From UHGV virus genome UHGV-0071757: a stretch of 38,572 nt of DNA. One strand, 5' to 3'. Both the position numbers and the translations under genes were made by a program. Below are positions 10,319 through 31,833 of the stretch, one piece after another (the stretch's first letter is position 1; every line of letters starts with the position of its first letter). The notes under the pieces are model-generated. The model did no database searches, was not told where the DNA came from, and saw only the letters and a list, made by a program, of their open reading frames with translations. This DNA comes from a virus.

Positions 10319-11019
10319 TGGCTGATTCGAATCTCAACACCCCTGTTATTGTGCAGGCGACGCGGCTCGATACATCAATCCTTCCACGCAATATATTCAG
10401 CCAGTCTTACCTGCTGTATGTCATTAATCAGGGGGCTGATGTCGGCGCAATTGCCGGGAAAGCAAATCAGGCTGGTCAGGGCGCTTACGATGCTCAGGTG
10501 AAAAACGATGAACAGGATGTCGAACTGGCTGACCACGATGCAAGAATCACCGCAAACACAAAAGCGATAAATCTCCTTGAGGTCAGGTTAACAACCGCCG
10601 AAGGGAAGATAGTTGTACTGCGTAGCGATGTTGATTACTTGCTGGATGAGGTTATCGATATTCAGGCGCATCTGGTCACTGTTGACCAAAGACTGGATGG
10701 CGTAGAAAGCGATATATCTGACATTAAGAGTGATTACGTATCGAAAACCGTAACAGAATCGCAGTCTCTTGCGTCACCGCTGGATGTAAAAACATCATAT
10801 TCAGTTGATGGAATTCAGGTCGTTGGAGCAAGGCAGACCGGATGGACAGCGGCCACAGGCACACCACTTCTTGGCTCATTCAACGCTAACCAGTCATACA
10901 CGGTCGGCACTACGTACACACAATCCGAAGTCGCAGCTATCGCTACAGGTTTGGAGCAGGCGCGGCAGCGTATTCTGGCGCTTGAAACAGCACTTAGATT
11001 ACATGGGCTGATTGACTGA
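10318..11019 (+). CDS. tail needle protein (P22 gp26-like)
   Basis: Start taken at the internal ATG 10318 ([25 protein letters not shown]...), giving 233 aa and a TAATG overlap with gp10. Strong resemblance to P22 gp26 N- and C-termini. The 10216 start in the ORF track is an upstream in-frame extension. Confidence 0.85.
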
Positions 11020-11474
11020 TGATTACATTCAAACCAACGCGAAACATCGACCTGATCGAAGCAGTAGGAAATCACCCTGACATCATCGCCGGGAGCAACA
11101 ACGGTGATGGATACGACTACAAACCTGATTGCCGTTACTTTGAGGTGAACGTGCACGGTCAGTTTGGCGGCATTGTTTACTATCAGGAGATTCAGCCGCT
11201 TACATTCGATTGCCACGCCATGTACCTGCCAGAGATTCGCGGCTTCAGCAAGGAAATAGGGCTGGCGTTCTGGCGATACATTCTGACTAACACCACCGTT
11301 CAGTGCGTCACATCGTTCGCCGCACGCAAATTCCGCCACGGTCAGATGTACTGCGCAATGATTGGCCTTAAGCGTGTAGGAACCATCAAGAAATACTTCA
11401 AAGGCGTGGATGACGTGACTTTTTACAGCGCCACACGCGAAGAACTAATCGACTTCCTGAATCACGGGAGATAG
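11019..11474 (+). CDS. head/tail stabilisation protein (P22 gp14-like)
   Basis: 151 aa directly after the tail needle, with a TGATGA overlap. Conserved position. Confidence 0.7.
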   Translation: MITFKPTRNIDLIEAVGNHPDIIAGSNNGDGYDYKPDCRYFEVNVHGQFGGIVYYQEIQPLTFDCHAMYLPEIRGFSKEIGLAFWRYILTNTTVQCVTSFAARKFRHGQMYCAMIGLKRVGTIKKYFKGVDDVTFYSATREELIDFLNHGR

Positions 11475-11476
11475 CC

Positions 11477-12169
11477 ATGTTATATGCATTTAAGCTGGGC
11501 AGAAAACTGCGCGGCGAGGAACCTTATTGCCCTGAAAAAGGCGGGAAAGGTGGCAGTTCTGATAAAAGTGCAAAGTATGCCGCAGAAGCTCAGAAGTATG
11601 CCGCAGACCTGCAAAATAAGCAGTTCAACACCATCATGAACAACCTGAAGCCGTTTACTCCTCTGGCTGATAAGTATCTCGGCAGCCTCGAGAACTTATC
11701 GTCTCTGGAAGGGCAAGGTCAGGCGCTTAACCAGTATTACAACTCTCAGCAGTATAAAGATCTTGCTGGTCAGGCTCGCTATCAGAGTCTGGCGGCAGCG
11801 GAAGCAACAGGTGGATTGGGTTCCACCGCAACCAGTAATCAGTTAGCAACAATCGCACCAACGCTTGGTCAGCAATGGCTATCTGGACAAATGAACAATT
11901 ACAACAACCTGGCAAATATCGGTCTTGGCGCTCTTCAGGGACAGGCAAACGCCGGGCAAACATATGCCAACAACATGAGTCAGATTTCGCAGCAAAGCGC
12001 AGCACTGGCGGCGGCAAACGCCAACCGACCGTCAGCATTGCAGCAGGGTGTTAGTGGTGCTGCATCCGGTGCGCTTTTGGGTGGTGGCATAGCCAGTGCT
12101 CTCGAGCTATCAACTCCGTGGGGGGCTGGTATTGGTGCTGGTCTTGGTCTGCTTGGTTCACTGTTTTAA
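11477..12169 (+). CDS. ejection (internal head) protein, P22 gp7-like
   Basis: 230 aa with a Gly/Ala-rich C-terminus. Position and size as P22 gp7. Confidence 0.75.
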   Translation: MLYAFKLGRKLRGEEPYCPEKGGKGGSSDKSAKYAAEAQKYAADLQNKQFNTIMNNLKPFTPLADKYLGSLENLSSLEGQGQALNQYYNSQQYKDLAGQARYQSLAAAEATGGLGSTATSNQLATIAPTLGQQWLSGQMNNYNNLANIGLGALQGQANAGQTYANNMSQISQQSAALAAANANRPSALQQGVSGAASGALLGGGIASALELSTPWGAGIGAGLGLLGSLF

Positions 12170-12179
12170 GGGTTAATCA

Positions 12180-13595
12180 ATGGCTACGTGGCAACAGGGT
12201 ATTAATTCTGGTGGTTTTCTGGCTGGCATTGGTACGCAAAATGAGAATGCACCAAAGGCAAGCGACATTAACGCAACGCTTGGTCTGATTCGCGAAAACA
12301 ATGAACTGGCTCGATCAGGTGCAAATAACGTTGGTCTGACCGCGTTACGTGGTCTGGCTGGAGTTGCTGATATTTACAATCAGGAACAGCAACAGAAAGC
12401 GATTAGTGCGTTCAATAAGGTTCATGCTGATGCATGGGCTTCTGGTGATCCATCGGGACTATTTAAGTTTGCCCAGGAAAATCCAGCGTTTGTTGCACAG
12501 GCACAACAGGCGTTTTCCGGTCTTAATGATCAGCAACGCAACGATATGGGCGATTTAGCCATGAGGGCTAACGTAGCTCTTTCTCAGGGACCGGAAGCCT
12601 ACAGTAAATTCATTACTGACAACAAGGACAGGTTAAATCGCGTTGGTGCTAATGCTGACTGGATGATTCAGACAGGTATCCAGAATCCAGAGCAGCTATC
12701 ACACATGCTGACTACTATGTCTCTCGGTGCACTTGGGCCAGAAAAGGCGTTTGCTGTTCAGGACAAGATGGCTGGTCGTGAAATTGACCGAGGCAGACTG
12801 GCAGAGACAATCCGCAGCAATCAGGCTGGAGAAGCACTTCAGGCGAGAGGCCAAAACCTTTCCTATCAGTCAGCAATGACTGGGCACAATATCGCAGCAC
12901 AACGTTTGGCTCTGGATCAGCAAGAGTTCGGGTTTAAGATGCAGCAAGCGCAGGAAAAGGCTCAGCAGTTGATTAGCGAAGCACCTAAGCTGTCAGTAAA
13001 CATGGAAAAAGGCATCGAGACGGCTGTAAACAATGCCACAGCATCATCAAACTCAGCCAATTCTATGAGTGCGCTTGCTCAACAGTTCAGAGCAGAAAAA
13101 CCAACGACAGGTTTGTTCGGTAACGCACAGAACATGTTCGCAAAACTTACCGGAAGCGATACGACATTGCGTGATTTGCGCATTCGCCAAAATGCCCTTG
13201 TTAACAGTCAGGTTCTTAAATTCCTACCTCCCGGCCCCGCAACGGATAAAGACGTTGAGATCGTTCGTCAGGGTGCACCAACTGACATGGATAACCCTGA
13301 GACGGTCGCAAGATGGCTTGATGCTATGGCAAACCTTGAGCGACGAAACGCGCAGTTTAATGAGTTTAAAGCCGAGTGGATGAGCGCGAATGGCAACCCT
13401 GGACAATCGCGTAATGGCGGTCAGATATTGGGGTTGGATGTTAAAAAAGGTGAATCATTGGGGAGTGCCGTTAAGCGGTATATGTCAATGAATACTGACG
13501 CAGCGCCAGCACAAGATTCGACACCTTCAGGAGAACCACGGAATCAGGTTGGATCATATACCTCAAAATCAGGCATTCAATTTACGGTGGAATGA
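12180..13595 (+). CDS. ejection protein, P22 gp20-like
   Basis: 471 aa, the same length as P22 gp20. Conserved order. Confidence 0.75.
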
Positions 13596-15433
13596 TGAAA
13601 GTAACTGCAAACGGTAAGACATTTACCTTTCCTGATGGTACGAGCACCGAAGATATTGGCACCGCCATTGATGAGTATTTTGCTGGTCAGGCTGTTCAGC
13701 AACAAACAGCTAATCAGGCCAATAATGCACCAACACGGGAAGAACCATCATTGATGCAACAAGCTGGCGATTGGCTTACTGGTAGTCAAAGTGCAGGGCA
13801 AATTGCAGAACAGGCTGGTCGTGGTCTGGTAAACATACCATTTGACGTATTGCAGGGCGGCGCAAGTCTGATTAATGCAATCAGTCAGGGGCTTGGTGGA
13901 CCCAAGGTTTTGGATGATGTTTATCGTCCAGTAGACAGACCGACAGACCCCTACGCGCAAGCCGGTGAAACAATTGGTGGGTATTTAGTTCCAGGAGTTG
14001 GAACAGCAGGAAGCATGGCTATTGGATCACTGGCAGAGGCAGCAAATCAGAAAGGCGATTTCGCACAAAATGCAGCTAAAAATGCCGGAGTTAACCTTGC
14101 CGCTCAGGGTGTTCTTTCCGCAGCAGCAAAGGGAATAGGGCGTGGAATAACGGCTATAAAAGGTGATATTGCGCCAGAAGTGGCGAAGAAAATTGCCACA
14201 TCAGAATCTATGGGCGTGACACCAATGACATCTGATGTTATCCCGCCGAAAAATGCTTTCACTCGCGGCCTTACTCAGGATGCCGAGGGGGCTTTGCTCG
14301 GGACAGGCTCAAAGCGAGCGGAGCAATATGCAACGCGTAGTAAGCTGGTAAGCAATTATTTTGACCGTTTTGGTGAGTACAACCCTGATGACGTGGTGAA
14401 ATCTCTGACCACCACGTTAAGGGGGCGGAAGGATGCCGCTGGCGCTGTTATCAATGACGTCACCAATAAAATGGGTAATGCCGCAGTTGATACCACAAAT
14501 ACCATGAATGCTCTGAATACAGCGATCGCAAGACAGGAACGGCTTGGGACGTCTGCCAATCAAAGCCTGCTTACATCCTTGCGTAACCTACGTGAAGAAT
14601 TAGCAGACCCTGCAACTGATTTGGATGTTACGTTTGATCTCTTGCGTCAGCACAGAACAGCATTTAGATCTAATGTTCAGGGAGATGCTATGGTCTTCCC
14701 CAACCAGGCAAAAGCAGCTACCAATATGGTAGAGAATGCAATGTCAAAAGACCTTCGTAACGCAGTTGCTAAAAACCTCGGTGCATCAGACGCAGCAAAA
14801 TACCTTAAAGCAAATTCCGATTATGCAAACGTTTATAATAAGGTGCTTAATAAAAACATTGCTAACAAGCTCAACAAGGCAAGCAGTGAAGCCAGTCCTG
14901 AACTTATAAATACCGTTGTATTAAGCAGAAAACCATCTGACGTGAAACGAATCTGGAGCGCATTGGATGATAAAGGGAAAGATGCTATGCGTGCAGCTTA
15001 CGTCAGCAAAATAGCGGAAAAGGCTGGTGACTCTCCAGCCAAGTTCATCACTGAAGTTAATAAGCTGAAATCTCAGTCAGGCGGTGAAATTTACAACACT
15101 ATTTTTTCTGGAAAGCACATGAAAGAGCTTGATGCTCTTCATGAAGTTCTACAGCAAACAGCAAGGTCAGACACCGCAAATGTAGTAACTCAGACGGGGC
15201 AATCGCAAGCCAACAGGATAAGGACGATTGGCGCAACTGCGACTCTTGGCGTATCAATGGGGCTTGAGGCTGGTTTCGGTGCAATGATGCGCTTGTATGA
15301 GTCCAAAGCAGCAAGGAATGCTCTCTTACGTTTGGCAAACACCAAAGCAGGAACGCCAGCCTATGAAAGAGCGTTGAGTAACGCTGCAAATGCCATCAGG
15401 CCGCTGCTTGCTACTGAGGCAACACAGCAGTAA
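13592..15433 (+). CDS. ejection protein, P22 gp16-like
   Basis: 613 aa, overlapping gp20 (ATGA). Size and order as P22 gp16. Confidence 0.75.
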
Positions 15434-15457
15434 CGTATGGGGAATGGGATTCAATCG

Positions 15458-15847
15458 TTAACATTTTCTTTTTACTTTTCCAACAAAAGCTTTGGTTGAA
15501 TCCATATTCCCATAACCAGAAATGGTTTTCGACATTAAAACTGTTCCATTAGGATGTATTACCCATGAGTCGATAACTCGTTGAGTTTCGCCATTCGCGC
15601 CGATTCCAATGATGGAGTTTTTAGACAATGCTTTGTAAGCCATGCCGCCCGCATCCGTCCCAGAATATGTGATACTGGCATCTTCACCGTTTGTCTTAAT
15701 GATGAATGTTCCACTAAAACCATCTTCTTCCGGTTGAAAATTATTTCGTTCTGAATAGCTTATTCCGTGCATATCGCCAACGACCCAGCACTCTGCTGTA
15801 GCCCCAAAAGATATGAATAAGAACATAGCAGCAAGAACTTTCTTCAC
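15458..15847 (-). CDS. secreted small protein (moron at sieA/immI position)
   Basis: 129 aa with GTG start, preceded by a strong SD (AAGGAGG). N-terminal signal peptide MKKVLAAMFLFISFGATA. Opposite strand to the late operon. Confidence 0.6.
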   Translation of the reverse strand: MKKVLAAMFLFISFGATAECWVVGDMHGISYSERNNFQPEEDGFSGTFIIKTNGEDASITYSGTDAGGMAYKALSKNSIIGIGANGETQRVIDSWVIHPNGTVLMSKTISGYGNMDSTKAFVGKVKRKC

Positions 15848-15952
15848 ACCAACCTCCTTAGTTTTGAGCAGGATACCATGAAAAAAGTAAACATCTTTTG
15901 CCTACTTCACATTTGAATGTTTTGTCATTAGGATGTTTCCGGTTTTTTAAAT

Positions 15953-16384
15953 ATGGAAATTGATATGAAGAGGATTATTAGCGTCGTTGCTGGCGCTATC
16001 ATGTTATCTGGGTGCGCAACTATTGTTGGTGATGAAACGCAACTTGTGCAAGTGAACAGCAATCCTTCCGGTGCGAGCTTTAAGGTAAAAGACGAATCAG
16101 GCGTGATTGTTGCGCAAGGTAAGACCCCGCAAGGAGTAACTCTTGCCAAGTCAGATGGTAGTTATTTTGGCAAAAAGAGCTACCAGATCACTATGGAGAA
16201 GGATGGGTACGAACCAGTTACCCTGCCAATCAAAGCCAATGCTAATGGTTGGTATATTGGTGGAAACCTTGTGTTTGGTGGGTTAATTGGTTGGCTTGCT
16301 GTAGATCCATTTAATGGTGGGATGTATACCTTGAAGCCTAAAGAGGCAAATGCATCCCTTATACCGTCCACAAAGCACGACTAA
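15953..16384 (+). CDS. lipoprotein (moron), possibly PEGA-like
   Basis: 143 aa. Lipobox AIMLSGC after a signal sequence (a likelier start is the ATG at 15965). Divergent from the secreted-protein gene. Confidence 0.6.
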   Translation: MEIDMKRIISVVAGAIMLSGCATIVGDETQLVQVNSNPSGASFKVKDESGVIVAQGKTPQGVTLAKSDGSYFGKKSYQITMEKDGYEPVTLPIKANANGWYIGGNLVFGGLIGWLAVDPFNGGMYTLKPKEANASLIPSTKHD

Positions 16385-16400
16385 TAAATGGAACCCACCA

Positions 16401-16652
16401 TCAGGTGGGTTTTTTGTACAAATCCTTCAGCGTATCAAACACCATCTTCTTAACAAGTTCGGACTGCTCATCAGCGATGCGTTCCGCATCGTCTCGATAG
16501 CCTGAAATTTTGGATGGCTTTGATACAGCATCAGTCACTATCTGAACTAATTCTGAATTAAGAGAGCGGCCATTGGATTTGGCTCGCTGTTTTAGTTTTT
16601 CCTTTAATTCGTAAGGTAGCCGCAGATTAAATTGCGGGTCATCTCTTCCCAT
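16401..16652 (-). CDS. mnt: Mnt-type ribbon-helix-helix repressor
   Basis: 83 aa. Arc/Mnt signature DDPQFNLRLPYELKEKLKQRAKSNGRSLNSELVQIV and C-terminus resemble P22 Mnt as I recall it. Confidence 0.85.
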   Translation of the reverse strand: MGRDDPQFNLRLPYELKEKLKQRAKSNGRSLNSELVQIVTDAVSKPSKISGYRDDAERIADEQSELVKKMVFDTLKDLYKKPT

Positions 16653-16715
16653 TCTTGATGCCTCGCTTTTGTGAGTGGATCGGCATCTTATTATCTGCTG
16701 GTTGCATCCTCAATA

Positions 16716-16730
16716 AGACCACAGTGGTCT
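16716..16730. promoter_or_regulatory. putative Mnt operator (palindrome AGACCACaGTGGTCT)
   Basis: Perfect 7-1-7 palindrome about 64 bp upstream of the mnt start, between mnt and the tailspike gene. Confidence 0.4.
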
Positions 16731-16798
16731 CTTTGTTTGATTAATAATACATCACTGTGGCAATGCTGCGGCGATTCCTTGTATCTGGAGCAAATTAA

Positions 16799-19744
16799 AT
16801 GACAGACATTACAGCCAATGTTGTAGTGAGTATGCCTTCGCAACTCTTCACTATGGCGCGTTCTTTTAAAGCCGTAGCCAATGGCAAAATTTATATCGGT
16901 AAAATTGACACTGACCCGGTAAATCCTGAAAACCAGATTCAGGTTTATGTAGAGAACGAAGACGGTTCTCACATTCCTGTTTCGCAACCAATAATCATTA
17001 ACGCTGCTGGATATCCGGTATATAACGGACAGATTGCCAAATTCGTAACCGTGCAAGGCCATTCTATGGCTGTTTATGATGCGTATGGTACACAGCAGTT
17101 CTATTTTCCGAATGTGCTGAAGTATGATCCTGATCAGTTACGACAGCAATTAGAAGACCCAGATGGAGCGAATAAATACCCAAAACTTCAGATAGCAAGA
17201 TGGAGAGACAGTTATGATGTAAGAGGTTGGGGGGCTATTGGTGATGGTGTTCATGATGATACATCAGCTCTATCAGAATTACTTTCTGTTGCAACAGGTG
17301 GTGAAAAGATAGATGGGCGAGGGCTTACTTTTAAAGTATCAACTCTTCCAGATGTCAGTCGATTTAAAAATGCTCGTTTTTTATTTGAGAGAATACCGGG
17401 TCAGCCTCTTTTTTATGCTTCTGAAGATTTTATCCAAGGAGAGTTATTTAAAATTACAGATACACCGTGGTACAACGCCTGGACGCAGGATAAAACGTTT
17501 GTATATGACAATGTCATCTATGCGCCTTTTATGGCTGGAGACCGCCATGGTGTAAATAACCTCCATGTTGCATGGGTTCGCTCAGGAGATGACGGGAAGA
17601 CCTGGACAACGCCGGAATGGCTTACAGATTTACATGAAAACTATCCCACAGTTAACTATCACTGCATGAGTATGGGGGTTGTCAGAAATCGCCTTTTTGC
17701 TGTAATTGAGACGCGGACCGTGAGCGGAAATAAACTGCAGGTTGCAGAGTTGTGGGATCGCCCAATGAGTCGCAGCCTTCGCGTTTATGGTGGTATAACG
17801 AAAGCAGCAAATCAGCAAGTCGCTTATATTCGCATTACTGATCACGGATTATTTGCTGGTGATTTTGTCAACTTCTCAAACTCTGGTGTTACAGGTGTTA
17901 CCGGGAATATGACGGTGACTACTGTCATTGATAAAAATACTTTTACAGTTACGACGCAAAATACCCAGGATGTGGATCAGAATAACGAGGGTAGATACTG
18001 GAGTTTTGGTACATCATTTCACTCGTCACCATGGAGAAAAACCAGTCTTGGAACTATTCCTTCTTTTGTTGACGGAAGCACTCCTGTTACTGAGATTCAC
18101 AGTTTTGCGACGATTAGCGATAACAGTTTTGCTGTTGGCTACCATAATGGTGATATTGATCCACGCGAGCTTGGGATACTCTATTTCTCTGATGCTTTCG
18201 GTTCTCCTGGTAGCTTTGTTCGCAGACGCATACCTGTAGAATATGAGGCGAATGCATCTGAGCCATGTGTAAAATATTATGATGGCATTCTGTATCTGAC
18301 GACCAGGGGGACATTAAGTACTCAACCCGGTAGTTCATTGCACAGAAGCTCTGATTTAGGTACATCATGGAATTCTCTTCGCTTCCCAAATAATGTTCAT
18401 CACTCAAACCTTCCTTTTGCCAAAGTTGGCGATGAGCTGATTATTTTTGGCAGTGAGCGCGCATTTGGTGAGTGGGAAGGAGGAGAACCTGATAACCGTT
18501 ATGCAGGAAATTATCCAAGAACATTTATGACCAGAGTTAACGTCAATGAGTGGAGTCTGGATAATGTAGAGTGGGTTAATGTTACTGATCAGATTTATCA
18601 GGGCGGAATAGTTAACTCTGCGGTTGGTGTTGGTTCAGTTTGTATCAAAGACAACTGGCTGTACTACATTTTCGGTGGGGAAGACTTTCTAAACCCATGG
18701 AGCATAGGGGATAACAACAGAAAATATCCTTATGTTCACGATGGTCACCCGGCTGATTTGTATTGTTTCAGGGTGAAAATTAAACAGGAAGAATTTGTTT
18801 CAAGGGATTTTGTCTACGGAGCCACTCCTAACAGAACGCTTCCTACTTTTATGTCGACGTCAGGCGTGAGGACGGTTCCTGTACCCGTTGATTTCACAGA
18901 TGATGTTGCCGTCCAGTCACTGACTGTCCATGCCGGTACATCAGGACAAGTTCGCGCGGAAGTCAAACTTGAGGGTAATTACGCCATTATTGCGAAGAAA
19001 GTACCGTCTGATGATGTTACCGCTCAGAGATTAATCGTTAGCGGCGGTGAAACAACGTCTTCAGCAGATGGCGCAATGATAACGTTGCATGGTTCCGGAA
19101 GCAGTACTCCACGTCGCGCGGTATATAACGCACTCGAACATCTTTTTGAGAACGGAGATGTTAAACCTTATCTTGATAATGTAAATGCTCTTGGTGGTCC
19201 GGGAAACAGGTTCTCGACAGTTTATCTTGGCTCCAATCCTGTGGTTACCAGTGACGGAACATTAAAGACAGAGGCGGTCTCTCCTGACGAAGCATTGCTG
19301 GATGCCTGGGGTGACGTCAGGTATATCGCTTATAAATGGCTGAACGCTGTCGCTATAAAGGGGGAAGAAGGGGCGAGGATACATCATGGTGTAATCGCGC
19401 AGCAACTTCGTGATGTTCTTATTTCTCACGGACTCATGGAAGAAGAAAGCACAACATGCCGCTATGCCTTTCTTTGCTATGACGATTATCCCGCAGTATA
19501 TGATGACGTCATTACTGGCCAAAGGGAAATACCGCTGACTGATAATGACGGGAGCATCATTGTTGATGAGGATGATAATCCAGTGATGGTAATGGAAGAC
19601 ATCATTGAGCGCGTTGAAATAACGCCAGCAGGATCTAGATGGGGGGTCAGACCTGATCTCTTATTCTATATCGAGGCGGCATGGCAGCGCAGAGAAATAG
19701 AAAGAATAAAAGCTAGGTTAGACTTAATAGAAGGGAAGCACTAA
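16799..19744 (+). CDS. tailspike: P22-like head-binding domain + sialidase-like (endosialidase) domain + C-terminal intramolecular chaperone domain
   Basis: 981 aa. N-terminus [11 protein letters not shown]...[21 protein letters not shown] like P22 gp9. Two Asp-box motifs ([16 protein letters not shown]). C-terminal ~150 aa resemble autoproteolytic chaperone domains of endosialidases and tail fibres. Confidence 0.85.
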
Positions 19745-19897
19745 ATGTTTCGTTGGCGTCAAAAATATGAACTGCTCACATAAAGAAGTAAGTACATTGG
19801 CAAAAAACATTGACGTCAACGAAATTAAATATAAAAATTTAAATGCTTTTTAATGACAAGAAAAGTAACTAGTGGTAAAATAACGTAGGATACTAAT

Positions 19898-20639
19898 ATG
19901 TCAAGACTCAAGACTCAAGACTCAAGACTCAAGACTCAAGACTCAAGACTCAAGACTCAAGACTCAAGACTCAAGACTCAAGACTCAAGACTCGTTTTCC
20001 GTTGATGATAATGGGTCAGGTAATATTTTTGTATGTGGAGATCTTGTAAATAGCAAAGAGAATAAAGTTCAGTTCAATGGAAACAATAACAAACTTATTA
20101 TAGAAGATGATGTTGAGTGTCGATGGCTTACCGTAATATTTAGGGGTGATAATAATTACGTAAGAATACATAAAAACAGTAAGATTAAAGGTGATATTGT
20201 CGCAACAAAAGGTTCAAAAGTTATTATCGGTAGAAGAACGACAATAGGTGCAGGTTTTGAAGTCGTCACTGATAAGTGCAATGTTACAATTGGCCATGAC
20301 TGCATGATAGCAAGAGATGTTATTTTGCGTGCATCAGATGGGCATCCTATATTTGATATTCATAGCAAAAAAAGGATTAATTGGGCAAAAGATATCATTA
20401 TATCTAGTTACGTATGGGTAGGGAGAAATGTCTCTATAATGAAAGGGGTATCTGTTGGAAGCGGATCTGTCATTGGGTATGGGAGTATTGTAACTAAAGA
20501 TGTGCCATCTATGTGTGCAGCAGCCGGTAATCCAGCAAAAATAATAAAAAGAAATATAATATGGGCAAGAACGGATAAAGCGGAGCTAATTAGTGATGAC
20601 AAGAGATGCTCCAGCTATCATGCGAAGCTCACGCAATAA
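19898..20639 (+). CDS. neuO: phase-variable polysialic acid O-acetyltransferase NeuO-like; out of frame (OFF) in this sequence
   Basis: ATG 19898 is followed by 13 AAGACTC heptads encoding RLKTQDS repeats. The ATG frame stops at TGA 20003-20005. The hexapeptide-repeat acyltransferase body (frame ending 20639) lies in a different frame from the ATG. Confidence 0.85.
19903..19993 (+). repeat. (AAGACTC)x13 heptanucleotide tandem repeat
   Basis: Counted directly: 91 nt, 13 perfect 7-nt units starting 5 nt after the neuO ATG. Confidence 0.95.
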
Positions 20640-20700
20640 ATATAAAACATCATGCAGACATATTACCAATATTAATATAAGGTAATAAAAATATAATTTA

Positions 20701-20727
20701 CAAAAAAGCCCGTTGGAAGCGACGGGC
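20701..20727 (-). terminator. hairpin terminator oriented for minus-strand transcripts
   Basis: gcccgt/acgggc stem. The U-tract is only on the minus-strand reading (plus strand has an A-tract 5' of the stem). Confidence 0.4.
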
Positions 20728-21016
20728 ATTAACCGCGGTAATGGATAAATTATTAATGTTTTTAGATTGTGAACGATATCATATTGTGCGGAAGTAGTGA
20801 AGTAACCATGTAAAATGATTGTTTCATAGCCTATGAGACACACAAGGCTTTGTGCTCTTCTGTGGATGTGTGGCTACATGTTTGAAGATCGTTGTGCCGT
20901 ATTTGTGACATACACATGGCAACATCATGCCTCAACTTTCTGTTTGTGCCATCAACTATAGATTAGTGAATGCGGTTAATGCTTGCTAAAACAGATAGTT
21001 ATGATTGGTGCTACAG

Positions 21017-21062
21017 ATTCGTAATGCGAAGGTCGTAGGTTCGACTCCTATTATCGGCACCA
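21017..21062 (+). other. att site: 3' 46 nt of a tRNA-Thr(CGU) (thrW-type) gene, partial, not a functional tRNA
   Basis: attcgtaatgcgaaggtcgtaggttcgactcctattatcggcacca has anticodon loop CGT, T-arm and acceptor 3' strand plus CCA. The 5' acceptor strand needed for a complete tRNA is absent upstream. Confidence 0.8.
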
Positions 21063-21567
21063 TTCTAATGTCTCCCCAAGTCTACTCAAGTATTTAAAAA
21101 CCTCTTATAATCCGCATGTTAGCGCCCCTTTTAGTCTTTTGACGTCTACTTAAGTACCCCAAAATCTACAGTCAATTGGGGGTACTTTTGGGGGTATTTG
21201 CTGTTCGGTTTAGTGGAGGTACCCCCAAGTGAAACTCAATGCCCGTCAAATAGACACTGCCAAGCCAAAAGAGAAGGCTTACAAGCTGGCTGATGGTGGT
21301 GGTCTGTATCTCCTGGTAAAACCTAGTGGAGGAAAATATTGGCGCTTCAAGTATCGTGTAGCTGGTAAAGAGAAGCTGTTAGCACTAGGTGTGTATCCTG
21401 AAGTTACCTTGGCTGATGCTCGTGCAAAACGTGAAGAAGCTAAAAGGGGTATCGCTGGGGGTATCGATCCGATGGAAGCGAAACGAGAGGAAAAGATTGC
21501 CCGGGAAACGCAGTTAAACAACACCTTCAAAGATATTGCCCTTGAGTGGCACAGCAGCAAATTAAAA
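21047..21567 (+). repeat. direct repeat copy A (att core + int promoter + first ~112 codons of int)
   Basis: About 90% identical by eye to 38013-38519. Contains GGGGGTACTTTTGGGGGTAT-type motifs. Confidence 0.85.
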
Positions 21568-22443
21568 AAATGGTCTGCTGGTTATGCTTCAGACATCCTC
21601 GAAGCCTTCAACAAAGATGTGTTCCCTTACATTGGCAAAAAACCAATCGCCGAAATCAAACCACTTGAACTGCTGAATGTGCTGCGGCGCATCGAGGGGC
21701 GCGGTGCTACCGAAAAAGCCAAAAAAGTGAGGCAGCGATGCGGGGAAGTTTTCCGCTATGCAATTGTCACTGGACGTGCTGAGTATAACCCTGCACCGGA
21801 TCTCACCAGCGCGATGCAAGGTCATGAATCTAATCATTATCCTTTCCTCACAGCCAAAGAATTACCTGATTTTTTCAAGGCATTGTCCAGTTACTCAGGA
21901 AGTGCATTGGTTGTTATGGCGGCTCGTCTACTGATTATCACCGGTTTGCGGACTGGCGAACTGCGCGGTGCATTATGGGATGAAATCGATCTCAACAAGG
22001 CTATCTGGGAGATACCTGCTTCACGGATGAAAATGCGTCGCCCTCATGTGGTGCCTTTGTCTAAGCAGGCTCTTTCGCTTATTGGGCAGATTAAAGAATT
22101 AACTGGCAATTATCCGCTTATGTTTCCCGGCCGTAATGATCCAAGGAAAACAATGAGCGAGGCTAGCATAAACCAAGTATTTAAACGCATCGGCTATAAC
22201 GGAAAGGTTACTGGTCATGGATTCCGGCACACCATGAGCACCATTTTGCATGAGCAGGGCTATAACACCGCGTGGATAGAGACACAGCTTGCACACGTCG
22301 ATAAAAACTCAATTCGTGGCACATACAACCATGCGCAATATCTGGATGGTCGCCGGGAGATGCTCCAGTGGTATGCCGACTATATGGATTCGCTCGAGCA
22401 TGGCGGTAACGTGGTGCATGGCAAGTTCGGAAAATGTGGATGA
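21229..22443 (+). CDS. int: P4-family tyrosine integrase
   Basis: 404 aa, GTG start. N-terminal arm-binding-type domain (GGGLYLLVKPSGGKYWRFKYR) and C-terminal catalytic residues (HGFRHT ... RGTYNHAQY). Directly downstream of the tRNA fragment. Confidence 0.9.
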   Translation: MKLNARQIDTAKPKEKAYKLADGGGLYLLVKPSGGKYWRFKYRVAGKEKLLALGVYPEVTLADARAKREEAKRGIAGGIDPMEAKREEKIARETQLNNTFKDIALEWHSSKLKKWSAGYASDILEAFNKDVFPYIGKKPIAEIKPLELLNVLRRIEGRGATEKAKKVRQRCGEVFRYAIVTGRAEYNPAPDLTSAMQGHESNHYPFLTAKELPDFFKALSSYSGSALVVMAARLLIITGLRTGELRGALWDEIDLNKAIWEIPASRMKMRRPHVVPLSKQALSLIGQIKELTGNYPLMFPGRNDPRKTMSEASINQVFKRIGYNGKVTGHGFRHTMSTILHEQGYNTAWIETQLAHVDKNSIRGTYNHAQYLDGRREMLQWYADYMDSLEHGGNVVHGKFGKCG

Positions 22444-22565
22444 CTGGTTGCGTATACAGTAGTAGACTTTGAGCGACGAAAGAAAAGGCTGTGTCTAGGG
22501 TCGCTCCCGAAAATCCGTACACCTCGACGGACTGGTACAGCCACTACAGTAGAGGACGCTGAGGT

Positions 22566-23369
22566 GTGCGTATGATTGATATTCATGCCGAATTAAACGA
22601 ATACAAAAAAGATTTTATTTCTTTACGTGAATTTCTTGAGGTCGTGCTTAAGGTCGCTGGTGATGATTATGATGTTTCAGATGTCATAACTTGGATACTC
22701 AGGAGAATAAGCGGAGAACATATCCGCCTGTACACAGTAAATGAATTTAAGCTGTTGGAATCTTTTTGTAACCCGTATCGGGATGAATTTGATTATGATG
22801 TTCTTTATAGAAATCTGAATGCGGTTCGGAAACGTGGTTGTTTACCTGGTGAGAGGGATGAAAATGGTTTTCTGGTGTCCGGTTATTGGGAAGATCCCGA
22901 ATTTGAGAACATTGGATTTATAAGGGGTGAAATTTTCGCAATTTTTCCCGATGTCCTTGACGCGTTAACGAAGCTGGAAGGCGCTAACTCTTCTGAAAAT
23001 GACGAGGCACAAGGACGCGATATTGAAAAGAAAGAGTTGCGTACAGAGGATGATTTATTATCCCAAATCGCAATGCTGGAAAAAGAAAACGCAGAGTTAA
23101 GGGCAAGGATAGAGCAGTTAGAGCAAGAGCGCCCGATACACTTATATAAATACTGGGATAAAGACCCATTAGCTAAGGCTATTGAGATTAGAAACAGAGA
23201 GTGGGCCAATTACGATCCAGAAAATGATTTTGCCACCAGGGGAAATCAAGAAGCGATAACCAGGGAGCTTAAGCAGTGGGGGGCAAGTAATGCACTTGCA
23301 ACGCTCATAGAGAGGACTGCCTGCCCTATTAACCGAGACAACAGCCAAAAGAACGCAAAGCCGGATTAA
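22566..23369 (+). CDS. hypothetical protein with coiled-coil segment
   Basis: 267-aa ORF (ATG at 22572 is better placed after GAGGTG). Coiled-coil LLSQIAMLEKENAELRARIEQLEQE. No recognisable catalytic motif. Confidence 0.55.
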   Translation: MRMIDIHAELNEYKKDFISLREFLEVVLKVAGDDYDVSDVITWILRRISGEHIRLYTVNEFKLLESFCNPYRDEFDYDVLYRNLNAVRKRGCLPGERDENGFLVSGYWEDPEFENIGFIRGEIFAIFPDVLDALTKLEGANSSENDEAQGRDIEKKELRTEDDLLSQIAMLEKENAELRARIEQLEQERPIHLYKYWDKDPLAKAIEIRNREWANYDPENDFATRGNQEAITRELKQWGASNALATLIERTACPINRDNSQKNAKPD

Positions 23370-23383
23370 CGCACCATACCGCA

Positions 23384-23530
23384 TACCCTGAGGGTGATTT
23401 ACTGTTACCCTGAGGGTATTTTTTTATCTTCCCCGTCAATTTTACCATCACCCTTAGGGTAGATTTCCTCCCGATTACCATCACCCTTAGGGTTAATTTC
23501 CTTCCGGTAACCATTAGGCCTGAGGGTATG
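23384..23530. repeat. five copies of ACCCT(G/T)AGGGT-type motif upstream of alpA
   Basis: Copies at about 23384, 23406, 23450, 23483 and 23517 in the intergenic region. Likely protein-binding sites. Confidence 0.6.
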
Positions 23531-23596
23531 AAAATATTCGTTATTTCTGTGCCAGGATTACCTCGTCAAATTGAGTAGACGTTATGAGGTAAATAT

Positions 23597-23794
23597 ATGT
23601 CAAATACGCTTATTCGTTTAACAGAAGTTCAGCGTAGAACTGGATATAGCAAGGCATGGATTTATCGCCTTATGGGGCAAGGTAAATTTCCTGCATCAGT
23701 TAAAATTGGCTCGCGAGCTATTGCTTTCGTTGAGAGTGAAATTGACGAGTGGATTAATCAGCGTATTGCGGAATCACGCGGAACAGCTACCTGA
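23597..23794 (+). CDS. alpA: AlpA-family transcriptional regulator (excisionase-like HTH)
   Basis: 65 aa. LTEVQRRTGYSKAWIYRLMGQGKFPASVKIGSRAIAFVESEIDEWI is the AlpA/Vis-type signature. SD GAGGT upstream. Confidence 0.8.
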   Translation: MSNTLIRLTEVQRRTGYSKAWIYRLMGQGKFPASVKIGSRAIAFVESEIDEWINQRIAESRGTAT

Positions 23795-23871
23795 TTAAAT
23801 GGCTACGGGGCTATTGCCCCCAGCTATCCACCAGCAAATAAAAGTAACTTAATTCGATAGCAGGAGTTTTT

Positions 23872-24672
23872 ATGAAATTTCCAAAAACGCCCGTACAGGG
23901 GCGGGGCTTCGTTCGGCCTGAAAACCAGAATCTGCAAAATTTCGGCGAAATTATCCCGATTATTTCCGGCGTTATTGGCGGGAGTGAAACCACTATTGTT
24001 AGCGCCAGAGCGTTACATAAGGCGTTAGGTGTAGGGCGCGTTTTCCGTTCGTGGATCAAGGGGCGCATTGAAGAATACGGGTTCACGGAAGGCGTGGATT
24101 ATGAGGTTGTTGAATATTTGAGCCGACCCGATCCGGTGAGCGCAAAATCTCGCCAGCAAACCGCTCTTGAGTACATCATCACAGTGAACATGGCGAAAGA
24201 ACTGGCGATGGTCGAACGTACCGAACAGGGCCGCGCCGTTCGCCAGTACTTTATCAAATGCGAGGAGGAGCTACACAAGGTAGCGCCAGTGCGTTCCGCA
24301 GCGTTACGCCGGGAACTGAAAGCCCGTATCTCCGTTGCCAGCTACTTTAAGCCGATGTGTGCCGCGCTGGAGGCGTACCGGGCTGAACTGGGTAAAAACA
24401 CACTCCAGCACCACTACACCACGGAAGCCAATATGCTGGCGCGTATCGTGCTGGGTGGCATGACTGCAAAACAGTGGACGCAGGCGAACGGCATCACAGG
24501 CGAACCACGCGACCACATGAGCACGTTGCAGCTTGAGCACCTTTCTTACCTTGAGCAGAGCAATATCACGCTGATTGAGTTAGGCCTGGACTACCACCAG
24601 CGGAAAGCTGAATTAATTCGTCTTTCGCAGCGTTGGTTAGCCCGTCGCATGGAGGAAAACAGCCATGTGTAA
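23872..24672 (+). CDS. AntA-like antirepressor-domain protein
   Basis: 266 aa. Motif ARALHKALGVGRVFRSWIKGRIEEYGFTEGVDYEV resembles the AntA/AntB N-terminal domain as I recall it. Confidence 0.55.
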   Translation: MKFPKTPVQGRGFVRPENQNLQNFGEIIPIISGVIGGSETTIVSARALHKALGVGRVFRSWIKGRIEEYGFTEGVDYEVVEYLSRPDPVSAKSRQQTALEYIITVNMAKELAMVERTEQGRAVRQYFIKCEEELHKVAPVRSAALRRELKARISVASYFKPMCAALEAYRAELGKNTLQHHYTTEANMLARIVLGGMTAKQWTQANGITGEPRDHMSTLQLEHLSYLEQSNITLIELGLDYHQRKAELIRLSQRWLARRMEENSHV

Positions 24673-25344
24673 CGCTCTGACCGTTACAAAAAGAGAAAGC
24701 GCCCCGTTGCCGGAGCGCCTTTGTGAACGAATAGCCTACTGCGCCATATTGCTTACTGTCTACGAGGCAGATTATAGCGTTGTGGTCGCACAGAGTGAAG
24801 GCGCTGATCACCGTTACTACAGCACGCCAGAAATGCAGAATATTTTGCTGCAAAATGTCGTTGGTCACGCTGTCCGGAAAGCAAAAAATTTTGCTGGTGG
24901 CGCGACTGATGCGATTTTGTCAGGTCGCAAGGTGATGATCAATCTGATGTCTAATTTCGTTCTGGATAAAACAAAGGCGACCGCAGAGGGCCACCAGTGG
25001 GAAAGCTACACACTTGAACACATCGCCAACAATGCCAGATTTGCGGCTGGTGGGCAATGTGATCAGTGTGTTGGCTTGCTGGTGGGCTATTCCTGCTCTT
25101 TAACATTGCCATGCCGCGATGTTTTCCAGGTATGCGACCCCATTTTTGTGCGCCTGTACTCTTTAAGGAATTTCTCAAGGATAAACGCACAGGGCGCGAA
25201 TCTGTCTGACTCATATTCGTACGTTATCTTTCTGCGCTGTCTTTTCCGTGCCGGTGATGGTGTATTGGTCGATTCTTTGTTGGTCATTCTGTGTACCTGT
25301 AAAGCAATGCGCCGGAGTTCCTCACACCACGGCGATGATAGTTA

Positions 25345-25650
25345 TTATTCTGATTCTTTGGCCTTGCGGCGCTGGAGTTCTTCACGTGCGACGGTGACGA
25401 GCTGCCCGATCTCCTCGACAGCTTTGACTCCGATTTTTTCCACCTGCGCCAGTGCATTGAGCGAAGAAACCAGGGGATTTTCTCCGCTTCCTTCTGCCTG
25501 GCGGCGGGCGATCTCACCACGCATGGCGGTTACTATGAATCCGGCGTTGCTTTCGCCGTCCAGTTTTACGGATTCCATGCCTTCAAAAGCATCATGTGGG
25601 ATACGAATTGAAATCTGTTTTGATTTGTCGTTGATAGTGTTTTTTGCCAT
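25345..25650 (-). CDS. putative ribbon-helix-helix transcriptional repressor
   Basis: Start taken at the ATG with SD TAGGAGA 7 nt upstream (MAKNTINDKSKQISIRIPHDAFEGMESVKL...). Beta-strand/helix pattern typical of RHH, helical C-terminus. Divergent from the downstream operon. Confidence 0.6.
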   Translation of the reverse strand: MAKNTINDKSKQISIRIPHDAFEGMESVKLDGESNAGFIVTAMRGEIARRQAEGSGENPLVSSLNALAQVEKIGVKAVEEIGQLVTVAREELQRRKAKESE

Positions 25651-25672
25651 GTGCATTCTCCTAAACAAAAGA

Positions 25673-25748
25673 TGTGATTCAGTATACACAAAAAAGAATC
25701 ACAAAAAATACTTGACCTGTGATTCAGTTAAATTTAATTTAAATCACA
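25673..25748. promoter_or_regulatory. two palindromic operators (TGTGATTCAG-N-GAATCACA) in a divergent promoter region
   Basis: O1 25673-25702 and O2 25719-25748, with a TTGACC -35-like hexamer between them. Located between the RHH gene and the 25838 operon. Confidence 0.55.
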
Positions 25749-25837
25749 CCTCAGTAAGAGGATATAAACGACAACGCCCCGAACTGTTTGCGGCAGTAGC
25801 GGGGCGTCTAACCAAACCGTTAAATGAGGTAACGATT

Positions 25838-26203
25838 ATGGCTGGGGCACAGCATACCCAAACTCACCCTAAATTTATATACACCTTCTTGGCGGTGCAC
25901 CGTGATTGCATGGCTGACGGTAAAAACACTGTTCATGTAGCCGCCGATACGCTGGTTGATGCCTGCGAGATGCTCAATGACATGGGCTATATCTCGGCAA
26001 CATGGAAAGGGCGCGAAGAAAACACGTTGTTTATTCAGAAATGCGAAAACAATTTTATCTGGCGTTTTATCGCCCTGAGTACGGCACAACCGCGCGTGAT
26101 TCACATCGAGGCCACCAGCGAACAGGAAGCACGCCAGCAATCTCCTGATGGCTGCGTGATGGTATTCGCTGCCCGTATTCGCCAGGAGGTGGAGCATGTG
26201 TAA
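25838..26203 (+). CDS. hypothetical protein (first gene of replication/regulatory operon)
   Basis: ATG 25838 with GAGG SD 8 nt upstream, 121 aa. It is the in-frame 3' part of the 512-aa ORF in the track. Confidence 0.55.
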   Translation: MAGAQHTQTHPKFIYTFLAVHRDCMADGKNTVHVAADTLVDACEMLNDMGYISATWKGREENTLFIQKCENNFIWRFIALSTAQPRVIHIEATSEQEARQQSPDGCVMVFAARIRQEVEHV

Positions 26204-26420
26204 TGCAACATGGCCTGATGCAGCGGTAGACGCTATCAAAACGCTGATGGATTCACTTATTGAGATTTCTGCTATCGCTGGTGTGGCGCATAAACACGCA
26301 GCCAGAGAATCAGAATGCATCTCCCATTATTTAGCATTTGTGCAGCTGAAAGCCGATCAGGCACTGGATAAGGCCGGAAAAATTATCATGGCTGATGTAC
26401 AGGAGGTGCACCATGCATAA
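26196..26420 (+). CDS. hypothetical small protein
   Basis: 74 aa. Start overlaps the upstream stop (ATGTGTAA). Confidence 0.45.
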   Translation: MCNATWPDAAVDAIKTLMDSLIEISAIAGVAHKHAARESECISHYLAFVQLKADQALDKAGKIIMADVQEVHHA

Positions 26421-26778
26421 CCTGTCAATTTCTGACCTTAACAGCATTCAGTTTGACGAGATATTTTCCGGGCAGCTACTGGTCAACGTGGAGAATGGAC
26501 GCGTGGTAAGTAATTATCACCTGCCGGATGGTGCAATTGCCGGAAGCGTTGAAGCATTGCTGGAACTGGCGGAACGTGCGCGACTGATTAAGCCGTCAAC
26601 GTGCCATCACGATGATGATCTGCATTTTACCGGGTGTATGGTGAGTCACTACGAAAACGGCGTTGAAGTATCCTGCGAACGTCTGCGTGATGATTGCTGT
26701 TTCGGCACACTGCCGGAATTTATCGAATTGCTGACCAGTTGCGGTTATCAGGTCATTCAGGGGGGTAAACATGCGTGA
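26413..26778 (+). CDS. hypothetical protein
   Basis: ATG 26413 with AGGAGG 7 nt upstream. Overlaps the previous stop (ATGCATAA). Confidence 0.55.
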   Translation: MHNLSISDLNSIQFDEIFSGQLLVNVENGRVVSNYHLPDGAIAGSVEALLELAERARLIKPSTCHHDDDLHFTGCMVSHYENGVEVSCERLRDDCCFGTLPEFIELLTSCGYQVIQGGKHA

Positions 26779-27004
26779 TGATCGTTTTAATTCCCTGAAA
26801 CAGGAGTTTGATGGCGCACCGGAAGATACATCGGGCGCATTGTTGAGCATTGCTGACATGATGAAAGCTGCATATTTTCTTATCAATACCATTGGCTACA
26901 AGTCAGAGGGTGAAATGATTCTTAGTATTGCGTCGGACTATGCTGAATATGTGGCAGAGACGCGTTACAGAAGAAAATCTCTGGAGGATGTAAGCCATGC
27001 ATAA
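26771..27004 (+). CDS. hypothetical small protein
   Basis: 77 aa. Start overlaps the upstream stop, suggesting translational coupling. Confidence 0.5.
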   Translation: MRDDRFNSLKQEFDGAPEDTSGALLSIADMMKAAYFLINTIGYKSEGEMILSIASDYAEYVAETRYRRKSLEDVSHA

Positions 27005-27197
27005 TCATGAAGCGCATGTACCCGTAGTGCTTAATGTGCCAGATGATTTCACCGGACGCGTGCTGGTTTACCTTGATAAAGAAAAAGTGAAATCACAATG
27101 CCGACTGAAAAGTAATGAGATTGTGGGTTCTCCTGAATTTTTTTCTGAACTCTGTATTCGTGCAGAAATAAAACCGGAACTGCTGACAGGAAAATAA
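26997..27197 (+). CDS. hypothetical small protein
   Basis: 66 aa. Start overlaps the upstream stop (ATGCATAA). Confidence 0.45.
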   Translation: MHNHEAHVPVVLNVPDDFTGRVLVYLDKEKVKSQCRLKSNEIVGSPEFFSELCIRAEIKPELLTGK

Positions 27198-27201
27198 AAC
27201 C

Positions 27202-27492
27202 ATGAAAAGGAAAAATTCTGGCTTTACTGCCAGCGGTCTCTCTCGGCCTGAAATCAGACACGGAGATATTTACCGCGACACCAGACGTGGGGGACGAGTG
27301 GTTATTCGTCACGTTACGCCAGGCAATATCACCTACCGCCGTGAGGCTTACGAATATGACTGCGTAATGCCGCGCCGTCAGTTTGAGCGTGATTTTATTC
27401 TGGTGGAAAACAAACAACAGGCAGTGGCGAGACGTGCAGCCACGAATATTAAAAAAATCCGGGCAATGTTGGTTGCGGGAGGTAAGAAGTGA
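27202..27492 (+). CDS. small basic protein, possibly DUF4222-like
   Basis: 96 aa. RGGRVVIRHVTPGNITYRREAYEYDCVMPRRQFERDFILV resembles small proteins found upstream of primases in P4-like islands (recall, low confidence). Confidence 0.5.
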   Translation: MKRKNSGFTASGLSRPEIRHGDIYRDTRRGGRVVIRHVTPGNITYRREAYEYDCVMPRRQFERDFILVENKQQAVARRAATNIKKIRAMLVAGGKK

Positions 27493-29294
27493 AAAACGCA
27501 CCGAATTTAAAATATCAGCCGAAGGATAAATTCACCGAGGTAATCATTTTTGCCGGGACGGATGCTTACGCCCATGCTCAACACTGGATTGAAAGCGAAG
27601 GACGAAAACACGGCGATAACGTGCCTCCTGTTTACCTGGGGCCAAAGCAACTGGCAGACCTGGCGAATATCCGCATTGTCGACGATGAACGCCGCTTTGC
27701 GCGTGTCTATCTCGCGGGGGAGATAGAGCCAATCCAGATCAATGCTATTGCTGAAAAGCTGGCGCTGGCTGGTGTACAGGACGCGAAATTATACAAAGGT
27801 ATCACCGACCGGGAGCCGGAAAACTGGCGCGACTACCTGCAACGGATCCGCGAACAGGCAGAGAGTGGGGAAGTTTCAGCGATGAAATTAGCCACAAAAA
27901 ATATTGACCTATCCAGGCCAGCACTAAATCAGATGGGAGCCAGCCAGAGAGGGGAAGTGTTACTTGAATATTATGGAAGAGCACTGGCTATAAATGATGA
28001 TTCTGATGTAGTTCACCATTACAACGGAATTGTCTGGGTGCCTGTATCTGATAAGGAACTCCAGCGGTCTATGGCGAAGATTTTTATTGATGCTGGAATC
28101 AGTTATTCGCAAAACGCCATTAAATTTGCCGTAGACACAATGAAATTGAGCCTGCCTGTTATGGGCGGGGCAGACAGGAATCTTATTGGATTCAGTAACG
28201 GGGTATTTGATACCCGGACGGGAAATTTTCGGGAGCATAACAAAAATGACTGGTTGTTAAATGCCAGTGAATTACCGTTCAGCCCACCAGCAGAGGGGGA
28301 AACGCTGGCAACACATGCGCCGAATTTCTGGAAGTGGCTGCGTCGTTCGGTGGCAGATAATGATCGTAAAGCTGATCGCGTACTGGCGGCATTATTCATG
28401 GTGCTGGCGAACCGGTACGACTGGCAGTTATTCCTTGAGGTAACAGGCCCAGGCGGAAGCGGTAAAAGTGTGATGGCTGAGATTTGTACCATGCTGGCGG
28501 GTAAGGCCAACACAGTATCGGCAAGCATGAAGGCTCTGGAAGACGCAAGGGAACGCGCGTTAGTAGTTGGCTTTTCGCTGATTATCATGCCGGATATGAC
28601 TCGCTACGCTGGCGATGGTGCAGGAATTAAGGCAATTACTGGCGGCGACAAGGTGGCAATTGATCCGAAACATAAAGCCCCCTACTCCACACGTATTCCG
28701 GCAGTAGTGCTTGCGGTAAACAATAACGCCATGTCATTCAGTGACCGAAGCGGGGGGATCTCGCGTCGTAGGGTGATATTTAATTTCTCTGAGGTCGTAC
28801 CGGAGAACGAACGCGATCCCATGCTGGCGGAAAAGATAGAAGGCGAACTGGCGGTAGTGATTCGCCATTTGCTAACACGATTTACCGACCAGGACGAAGC
28901 TAAAAGACTACTTTATGAGCAGCAAAAATCAGAAGAAGCGCTGTTGATAAAGCGCGAAGGTGATTCACTGGTGGACTTTTGCGGCTATCTGATGTCGTTG
29001 GTTAAATGTGAAGGAATGATGGTGGGCAATGCGGAAATAGTGCCATTTAGCCCGAGGCGATACCTGTATCATGCTTATTTAGCCTATATGTCAGCGCATG
29101 GCCTGGGAAAACCAGTATCACTGACACGCTTTGGTACTGATATGCCAGGAGCTATGGCGGAATACGGAAAGGAGTATAAGCGGGCTAAATGCACTAAAGG
29201 CCCGGATAAAGGGCGAGTGATAACAAATGTTCTGTTAGATGATGATGCTGATGGCTGGTTGCCAGCAGCTACAGGGATTAACGACAGAACATAA
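27489..29294 (+). CDS. primase/helicase-like replication protein (D5-N/P4-alpha C-terminal type, P-loop NTPase)
   Basis: 601 aa. Walker A TGPGGSGKS preceded by a region resembling D5_N/primase C-terminal domains. Followed immediately by the iteron array. Confidence 0.75.
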   Translation: MKNAPNLKYQPKDKFTEVIIFAGTDAYAHAQHWIESEGRKHGDNVPPVYLGPKQLADLANIRIVDDERRFARVYLAGEIEPIQINAIAEKLALAGVQDAKLYKGITDREPENWRDYLQRIREQAESGEVSAMKLATKNIDLSRPALNQMGASQRGEVLLEYYGRALAINDDSDVVHHYNGIVWVPVSDKELQRSMAKIFIDAGISYSQNAIKFAVDTMKLSLPVMGGADRNLIGFSNGVFDTRTGNFREHNKNDWLLNASELPFSPPAEGETLATHAPNFWKWLRRSVADNDRKADRVLAALFMVLANRYDWQLFLEVTGPGGSGKSVMAEICTMLAGKANTVSASMKALEDARERALVVGFSLIIMPDMTRYAGDGAGIKAITGGDKVAIDPKHKAPYSTRIPAVVLAVNNNAMSFSDRSGGISRRRVIFNFSEVVPENERDPMLAEKIEGELAVVIRHLLTRFTDQDEAKRLLYEQQKSEEALLIKREGDSLVDFCGYLMSLVKCEGMMVGNAEIVPFSPRRYLYHAYLAYMSAHGLGKPVSLTRFGTDMPGAMAEYGKEYKRAKCTKGPDKGRVITNVLLDDDADGWLPAATGINDRT

Positions 29295-29319
29295 TACGAA
29301 ATTTATAAGCTGAAACGTA

Positions 29320-29660: not shown

Positions 29661-29665
29661 TAACG

Positions 29666-30492: not shown

Positions 30493-30626
30493 CAGAGGAT
30501 GGGATTCTCTTGGTTTTTTGTTGATGCTTTCTGAGGAAATCTACTACGTTGCTGAGCAGATGAATATTCAATTGCATCTGGGTTCCTGATAAGATTAATC
30601 TGAATATTTTCATTTGGAATAGGGAT

Positions 30627-31769: not shown

Positions 31770-31780
31770 ACAATCCGTGC

Positions 31781-31806: not shown

Positions 31807-31833
31807 ATATTAATGTTCAACGTGGGGGATTAG

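Follow-up and report, generated by a model that had tools for sequence, protein, structure and literature searches.

What protein is encoded at positions 16799-19744 of this viral genome, which polymer does it attack, and how did its gene come to lie beside a gene for a capsule-modifying enzyme? The window considered here is the whole stretch of UHGV virus genome UHGV-0071757, 38,572 nucleotides long; all features are given in its coordinates and lie on the plus strand unless stated otherwise. We conclude, with a probability of about 95%, that the gene product is the receptor-binding and receptor-destroying protein of a CUS-3-like, P22-type temperate podovirus of Escherichia coli K1, and that it belongs to the endosialidase family, which we take to be family GH58 of the CAZy classification. 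Every part of the earlier note's interpretation is upheld, and no sequence result speaks against this reading. What we observe directly is the domain architecture, a sequence almost identical to that of the assayed CUS-3 enzyme, and conserved catalytic and cleavage residues; the last two of these suggest that the present allele would also trimerise, cleave itself and be active. The chimera itself is already known, as the CUS-3-type K1 endosialidase described in 2006. According to PMC5380687, which cites Stummeyer 2006, the CUS-3 tailspike joins an N-terminus of the P22, Sf6 and HK620 type to a catalytic domain of the K1F type, and that source presents it as a clear case of tailspikes evolving through the exchange of modules.

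An intact siaK1-type gene in a P22-like late operon

The ORF lies exactly where it had been reported (16799..19744), is intact, starts with ATG and encodes 981 amino acids followed by a stop codon. We assign it as a siaK1-type endosialidase tailspike CDS on the basis of the ORF and of its nucleotide identity to siaK1 of CUS-3 (CP000711; 98.8% over the full length), to the corresponding gene of vB_EcoP-720R6 (99.8%) and to that of the poultry isolate E. coli strain E1 (100%). Compared with CUS-3 SiaK1, the protein carries 13 substitutions in 981 residues (98.7% identity) and no insertions or deletions, and the key residues that we checked are untouched by these changes. Six Pfam families follow one another along the protein in the canonical order, each scoring far above its gathering threshold. 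At least 80% of the tailspike gene is present in 181 of 5426 complete E. coli genomes. The GenBank record describes CUS-3 siaK1 as "endosialidase tailspike protein", with endo-alpha-sialidase activity assigned by direct assay (IDA; PMID 16689790). The specificity for K1-type polysialic acid that the earlier note had predicted from motifs thus gains support from 98.8% nucleotide identity to a gene annotated as an endo-alpha-sialidase. A minus-strand ORF of 123 amino acids (16691..17062) overlaps the start of the tailspike gene; we rejected it as spurious because it runs opposite to the conserved coding sequence of the head-binding domain and because the annotation of strain E1 has no gene there.

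Upstream of the tailspike gene, the window contains matches to P22_portal, P22_CoatProtein, Phage_stabilise (gp10), P22_gp7 and Inj_translocase, and the locus in strain E1, from which the gp4, gp10 and gp16 annotations are taken, is 99.6% identical to window positions 8000-21567. This setting bears on whether the tailspike is in use. The gene could be an intact but idle relic of a cryptic or defective prophage, its product unassembled and its sequence kept by recent acquisition or by hitch-hiking with neuO. Such a relic would be in keeping with the propensity of CUS-3-like phages to decay, their tail and coat genes often being pseudogenised (PMC9659370), and with the location of the prophage at thrW, where mobile elements are arrayed in tandem; moreover, the window covers the late genes and does not extend to the early and lysogeny region. 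However, the terminase, portal, coat, gp10 and three ejection protein genes are all full-length and match their families strongly, the tailspike ORF is as long as that of the functional CUS-3 protein and keeps all key residues, and near-identical genes occur in records of phage collections (720R6 and ZX5). We consider an idle relic unlikely, and we prefer to read the gene as encoding a receptor-destroying tailspike that may still be assembled into virions.

The catalytic centre is an endosialidase beta-propeller

The centre of the protein, earlier described as sialidase-like, proves to be a true endosialidase, with matches to four End_ Pfam families and to the endoNF structures 1V0E and 3GVL, which match aa 145-817 at E=0 and stop at aligned residue 817. 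The catalytic six-bladed beta-propeller (aa 213-662; 17435..18784) is defined by End_beta_propel (PF12217), which matches over its entire length (model positions 1-367 of 367, E=8e-233), by the endoNF structures and by the catalytic residues. Inserted in the propeller is a beta-barrel (aa 324-406; 17768..18016; Pfam End_beta_barrel PF12195, E=1.2e-46), and the propeller is followed by the stalk, or tailspike domain (aa 663-817; 18785..19249; Pfam End_tail_spike PF12219, E=7.4e-78).

A motif search with the strict Asp box pattern S-x-D-x-G-x-[TS]-W finds two boxes, SGDDGKTW at aa 262-269 (17582..17605) and SSDLGTSW at aa 517-524 (18347..18370), against a mean of 0.00095 per shuffle of the protein. 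Both boxes had been noticed before and both are present, but their positions needed correction: 17586-17609 is shifted by 4 nt, which breaks the codon register, and about 18346-18369 is shifted by 1 nt.

The catalytic residues of endoNF are H350, R549, E581, R596 and R647 (PMC12632334). In the alignment of the two proteins, H250, R456, E488, R503 and R554 of the present tailspike stand opposite these five residues, respectively, and are identical to them. The mutant chain 3GVJ has an alanine at the position aligned with R554, which, going by the chain numbering of 1V0E, is presumably R647.

The C-terminus is a chaperone of the S74 type with a predicted autocleavage site

The intramolecular chaperone (Peptidase S74) spans aa 818-981 (19250..19741), as judged from Pfam, the structure 3GW6 and the alignment with K1F gp17. 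Peptidase_S74 (PF13884) matches aa 818-878 with E=2.4e-10 and 41 bits, the cutoff being 22. The structure of the endoNF stalk and chaperone, 3GW6, matches aa 698-979 with E=5.5e-94 when the whole protein is the query and with E=3.8e-95 when aa 698-981 are used alone; the C-terminal query also matches the neck appendage protein 3GUD (E=2.3e-10). A chaperone at this end of the protein had been proposed with a length of about 150 residues, and the domain stands, whereas its length is 164 residues.

The alignment with K1F also places the predicted autocleavage site. S818 (codon 19250-19252) and its partner K823 (codon 19265-19267), within VVTSDGTLK, align with S911 and K916 of K1F, within IVTSNGERK, and in the K1F record mature gp17* gives way to gp17-CTD, the released chaperone, at S911. 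In endoNF, S911 and K916 reportedly form a catalytic Ser-Lys dyad. In 3GW6, the position of S818 is occupied by alanine, which fits a non-cleaving mutant made for crystallisation.

The neighbouring neuO gene is genuine and out of frame

The neighbour that the earlier note had called neuO is indeed a gene for a polysialic acid O-acetyltransferase, as its match to NeuO 3JQY (E=7e-142) shows, though it is out of frame. It runs from an ATG at 19898 to a stop at 20639 (19898..20639) and belongs to the same 4.1-kb module as the tailspike gene. The ATG is followed by TC and then by 13 AAGACTC repeats at 19903-19993, and the frame that continues after the repeats matches all 214 amino acids of 3JQY with a single substitution. 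Translation of full-length NeuO requires a repeat number divisible by three (PMC13001214). Because 13 is not divisible by three, the gene is out of frame and in phase OFF; translation from the ATG stops directly after the repeat tract. A promoter-like site lies just upstream of neuO, at 19853-19881. The scan for promoters and terminators over 16300-21300 gave counts near the shuffled expectation.

The pairing with neuO raises the question of whether the specificity of the enzyme has shifted, either to O-acetylated polysialic acid or to a different polymer of sialic acid, for example K92 or alpha-2,9. Co-inheritance with a gene that modifies the substrate would agree with such a shift, as would the 13 substitutions relative to CUS-3 and the per-domain identity of 56-78% to endoNF. 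However, the catalytic residues are invariant, and the protein is 98.7% identical to a CUS-3 enzyme that is annotated as an endo-alpha-sialidase by direct assay. In addition, O-acetylation reduces, rather than enables, the attack of K1 phages, an effect shown with lytic K1 phages and not with the present enzyme (PMC13001214). We regard a shifted specificity as very improbable and retain K1 polysialic acid as the substrate.

The P22-type head-binding domain ends at a recombination junction

The virion-attachment domain of the P22 gp9 type occupies aa 1-113 (16799..17137). It is identified by Pfam Head_binding (PF09008; aa 1-113, model positions 1-113 of 113, E=1.6e-66), by matches in the PDB and by 76.1% identity to P22 gp9 over the same residues, in agreement with the head-binding domain of about 110 residues recognised before. 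Among the structures, aa 1-118 match the N-terminus of the Sf6 tailspike (7SG7, E=8.5e-65) and the P22 tailspike chains 1LKT, 2XC1 and 8TVR, with E values of about 1e-45 to 1e-51 (1LKT, E=8.6e-45).

Beyond aa 113, the identity to P22 gp9 is only about 23-36%, in short gapped stretches. The homology to K1F gp17 starts at aa 114, which corresponds to K1F residue 214, and continues to the C-terminus. Because the identity to P22 gp9 falls at the very point at which the homology to K1F gp17 starts, we place the junction at aa 113/114, between YDPDQ and LRQQ. In the search of complete E. coli genomes, about 1000 have in common with the gene no more than its first ~334-355 nt, within other P22-like tailspikes, and the end of homology at this point is independent support for the junction. 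A beta-helix depolymerase centre, as in the tailspikes of P22, Sf6 and HK620, had already been considered in the earlier note and has in its favour nothing but the N-terminal domain shared with those tailspikes; it is excluded here for practical purposes by the drop in identity to P22 gp9 from 76% to about 23-36% past aa 113, by endosialidase Pfam matches down to 8e-233 and by the match to the endoNF propeller at E=0. Between the head-binding domain and the endosialidase propeller lies a linker with the endosialidase N-terminal extension (aa 114-212; 17138..17434), assigned by homology to K1F gp17 and by the Pfam family End_N_terminal, which covers aa 146-212 with E=8.8e-37 and is the weakest of the four endosialidase families.

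A model for the action of the tailspike

The steps of the following model are established for the endosialidase family, and we infer them for the present allele. The tailspike protein would fold as a homotrimer, in which the S74 chaperone domain (aa 818-981) would nucleate the folding of the triple-beta-helix stalk and would then remove itself by autoproteolysis involving Ser818 and Lys823. The P22 gp9-type domain (aa 1-113) is predicted to attach the mature trimer to the tail hub of gp4 and gp10, whose genes lie upstream in the window. The stalk and the beta-barrel would grip the polymer, so that the virion could tunnel to the outer membrane. The product of the phase-variable neuO gene O-acetylates the same polymer that the tailspike attacks. 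Published work indicates that this acetylation makes cells less susceptible to K1 phages, so that the two genes travel as a single capsule-directed module.

The prophage ends at a fragment of thrW

The mnt gene lies directly upstream of the tailspike gene, and no integrase gene follows neuO. BLAST against annotated E. coli tRNA-Thr genes reveals 46 nt of a tRNA-Thr 3' end at 21017-21062. ARAGORN finds no tRNA over the whole window, and Rfam at E<=1 returns only chance miRNA and sRNA matches in 20600-21300, neither method being able to recognise so short a thrW remnant. The tRNA-Thr fragment matches a P22-type attR at thrW, which is an integration site of P22-like phages (PMC2629481). The insertion sites described for CUS-3-like phages are argW and pgl-bioA (PMC9659370), and thrW would be a third site beside them.

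A P4-like island of about 17 kb follows beyond the thrW fragment, in tandem with the prophage. Direct repeats of 522 bp (21046-21567 and 38014-38522) flank the island, which strain E1 lacks. PADLOC, run on nine unannotated ORFs (seven from this island and two from upstream of the tailspike gene), returned no match.

The presence of siaK1-neuO on a P22-like, non-CUS-3 backbone at thrW, in tandem with the P4-like island, together with the presence of the same catalytic module on an unrelated Uetakevirus tail fibre, leads us to propose that a 4-kb K1-capsule module has very recently reached several lineages of temperate phages and several chromosomal sites, a proposal to which we give roughly even odds.

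Implications for annotation

In RefSeq, the tailspike gene is labelled "phage tailspike protein" and the remnant of neuO is labelled "acyltransferase". The first should read K1-specific endosialidase tailspike, and the second phase-OFF neuO. As a pair, the two genes probably mark the host as a K1-capsulated ExPEC or APEC strain. The tailspike is an ordinary and known finding, and its modular origin is used in reviews as an example of domain swapping. Its context is a small data point on the movement of capsule modules, comprising a non-CUS-3 backbone, the thrW junction and a relative without neuO.

Comparison with known systems

The closest characterised relative is CUS-3, whose SiaK1, or endoNK1 (ABQ88383), resembles the present tailspike in its length of 981 amino acids, in the order of its domains and in having neuO next to its gene. 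The present prophage is nevertheless not CUS-3 itself, and its backbone differs: over the stretch compared, the two genomes share only the block at 16752-20860 (98.0% identity) and a weak match to mnt. In CUS-3, ant lies upstream of siaK1, whereas in the present prophage mnt adjoins the tailspike gene and ant is absent. CUS-3 carries int next to neuO and integrates at argW, whereas the present element has no integrase there and ends at the thrW fragment. The neuO genes also differ in their repeats, of which the CUS-3 record has 19 and the present gene has 13. In vB_EcoP-720R6, the same tailspike occurs without exactly the segment corresponding to window positions 19859-20666, which is the neuO cassette.

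EndoNF (K1F gp17; AM084414) is homologous to the present tailspike from aa 114 to its end, with 56-78% identity per domain. It has the same propeller with an inserted barrel, the same stalk and S74 chaperone, the same catalytic residues and the same Ser/Lys pair. The first 213 residues of the K1F protein, an N-terminus that resembles T7 tail fibres (PMC5380687), cannot be aligned, and the present tailspike has its 113-residue P22-type head-binding domain in their place. Relative to endoNF, the present tailspike also carries an insertion of seven residues, FVDGSTP, after aa 422 (about aa 423-429).

The likeness to P22 gp9, and also to Sf6 gp14 and the HK620 tailspike, lies in the head-binding domain, which in P22 is 76% identical over aa 1-113. 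The position of the P22 gp9 gene also matches, since in both cases the gene follows those for the ejection proteins and mnt in a late operon of the P22 type. Past aa 113, the two proteins have no meaningful similarity. The body of P22 gp9 is a right-handed beta-helix endorhamnosidase without a cleaved chaperone.

The tail fibre of vB_EcoP_ZX5 (Uetakevirus; MW722083, QTH80017) is 97-100% identical to aa 174-971 of the present tailspike. It is 1039 amino acids long, has an unrelated N-terminal attachment region, differs in the last ~10 residues and comes from a phage of another genus. This identity suggests that the module of catalytic and chaperone domains was exchanged very recently.

The thrW junction and a P4-like island

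Directly beyond the prophage end lies the 46-nt 3' end of a tRNA-Thr gene (thrW, 21017-21062). This fragment is consistent with a P22-type attR; the window does not extend to the left prophage end. Because PMC9659370 gives only argW and pgl-bioA as sites of CUS-3-like phages, thrW may be a third insertion site for this group.

An integrative island of ~17 kb (21046-38522) has 522-bp direct repeats on both sides (21046-21567 and 38014-38522), which are 94% identical. With genes for a P4-type integrase (21229-22443), a protein with an AntA domain (23872-24672), a primase-helicase of the D5 type (27489-29294) and a ProQ/FinO protein (29666-30208), the island looks like a P4-like satellite. The poultry E. 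coli strain E1 lacks the ~17-kb island, and the vat toxin island comes next in its place. The cargo end of the island (35000-38000) is low in GC (31-37%) and contains a 532-aa ORF (35641-37239). Defence genes are often found at such positions in P4-like satellites. The ORF has no match in Pfam or PADLOC, and no defence gene was identified at this end.

The tailspike, neuO and neighbouring ORFs

Two small ORFs (15458-15847, minus strand, and 15953-16384, plus strand) separate mnt from the last of the ejection-protein genes and occupy the 'ant moron' slot of P22-like phages. Neither has a Pfam or PADLOC match, and their N-termini look like signal or lipoprotein leaders. In strain E1, the homologue of the second ORF is labelled 'peptidase associated/transthyretin-like domain-containing protein' in RefSeq.

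The window neuO (19898-20639) contains 13 copies of the AAGACTC heptanucleotide (19903-19993). Since 13 is not divisible by three, the O-acetyltransferase is out of frame and the gene is in phase OFF. RefSeq-style annotation of the region gives only an 'acyltransferase' remnant of 111 aa (20304-20639).

Comparison with phage CUS-3 shows that the only stretch in common with the window is a 4.1-kb block (16752-20860, 98%) comprising the tailspike and neuO. The tailspike is the same in phage vB_EcoP-720R6, from which precisely window 19859-20666 is missing, so neuO behaves as a discrete ~0.8-kb cassette 3' of the tailspike gene. The catalytic and chaperone module of the window protein (aa 174-971) recurs at 97-100% identity in the 1039-aa tail fibre of the Uetakevirus vB_EcoP_ZX5 (803-3922 of its sequence, L006), where it follows an unrelated N-terminus. 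Such identity behind an unrelated N-terminus indicates a very recent swap of this module between phage genera.
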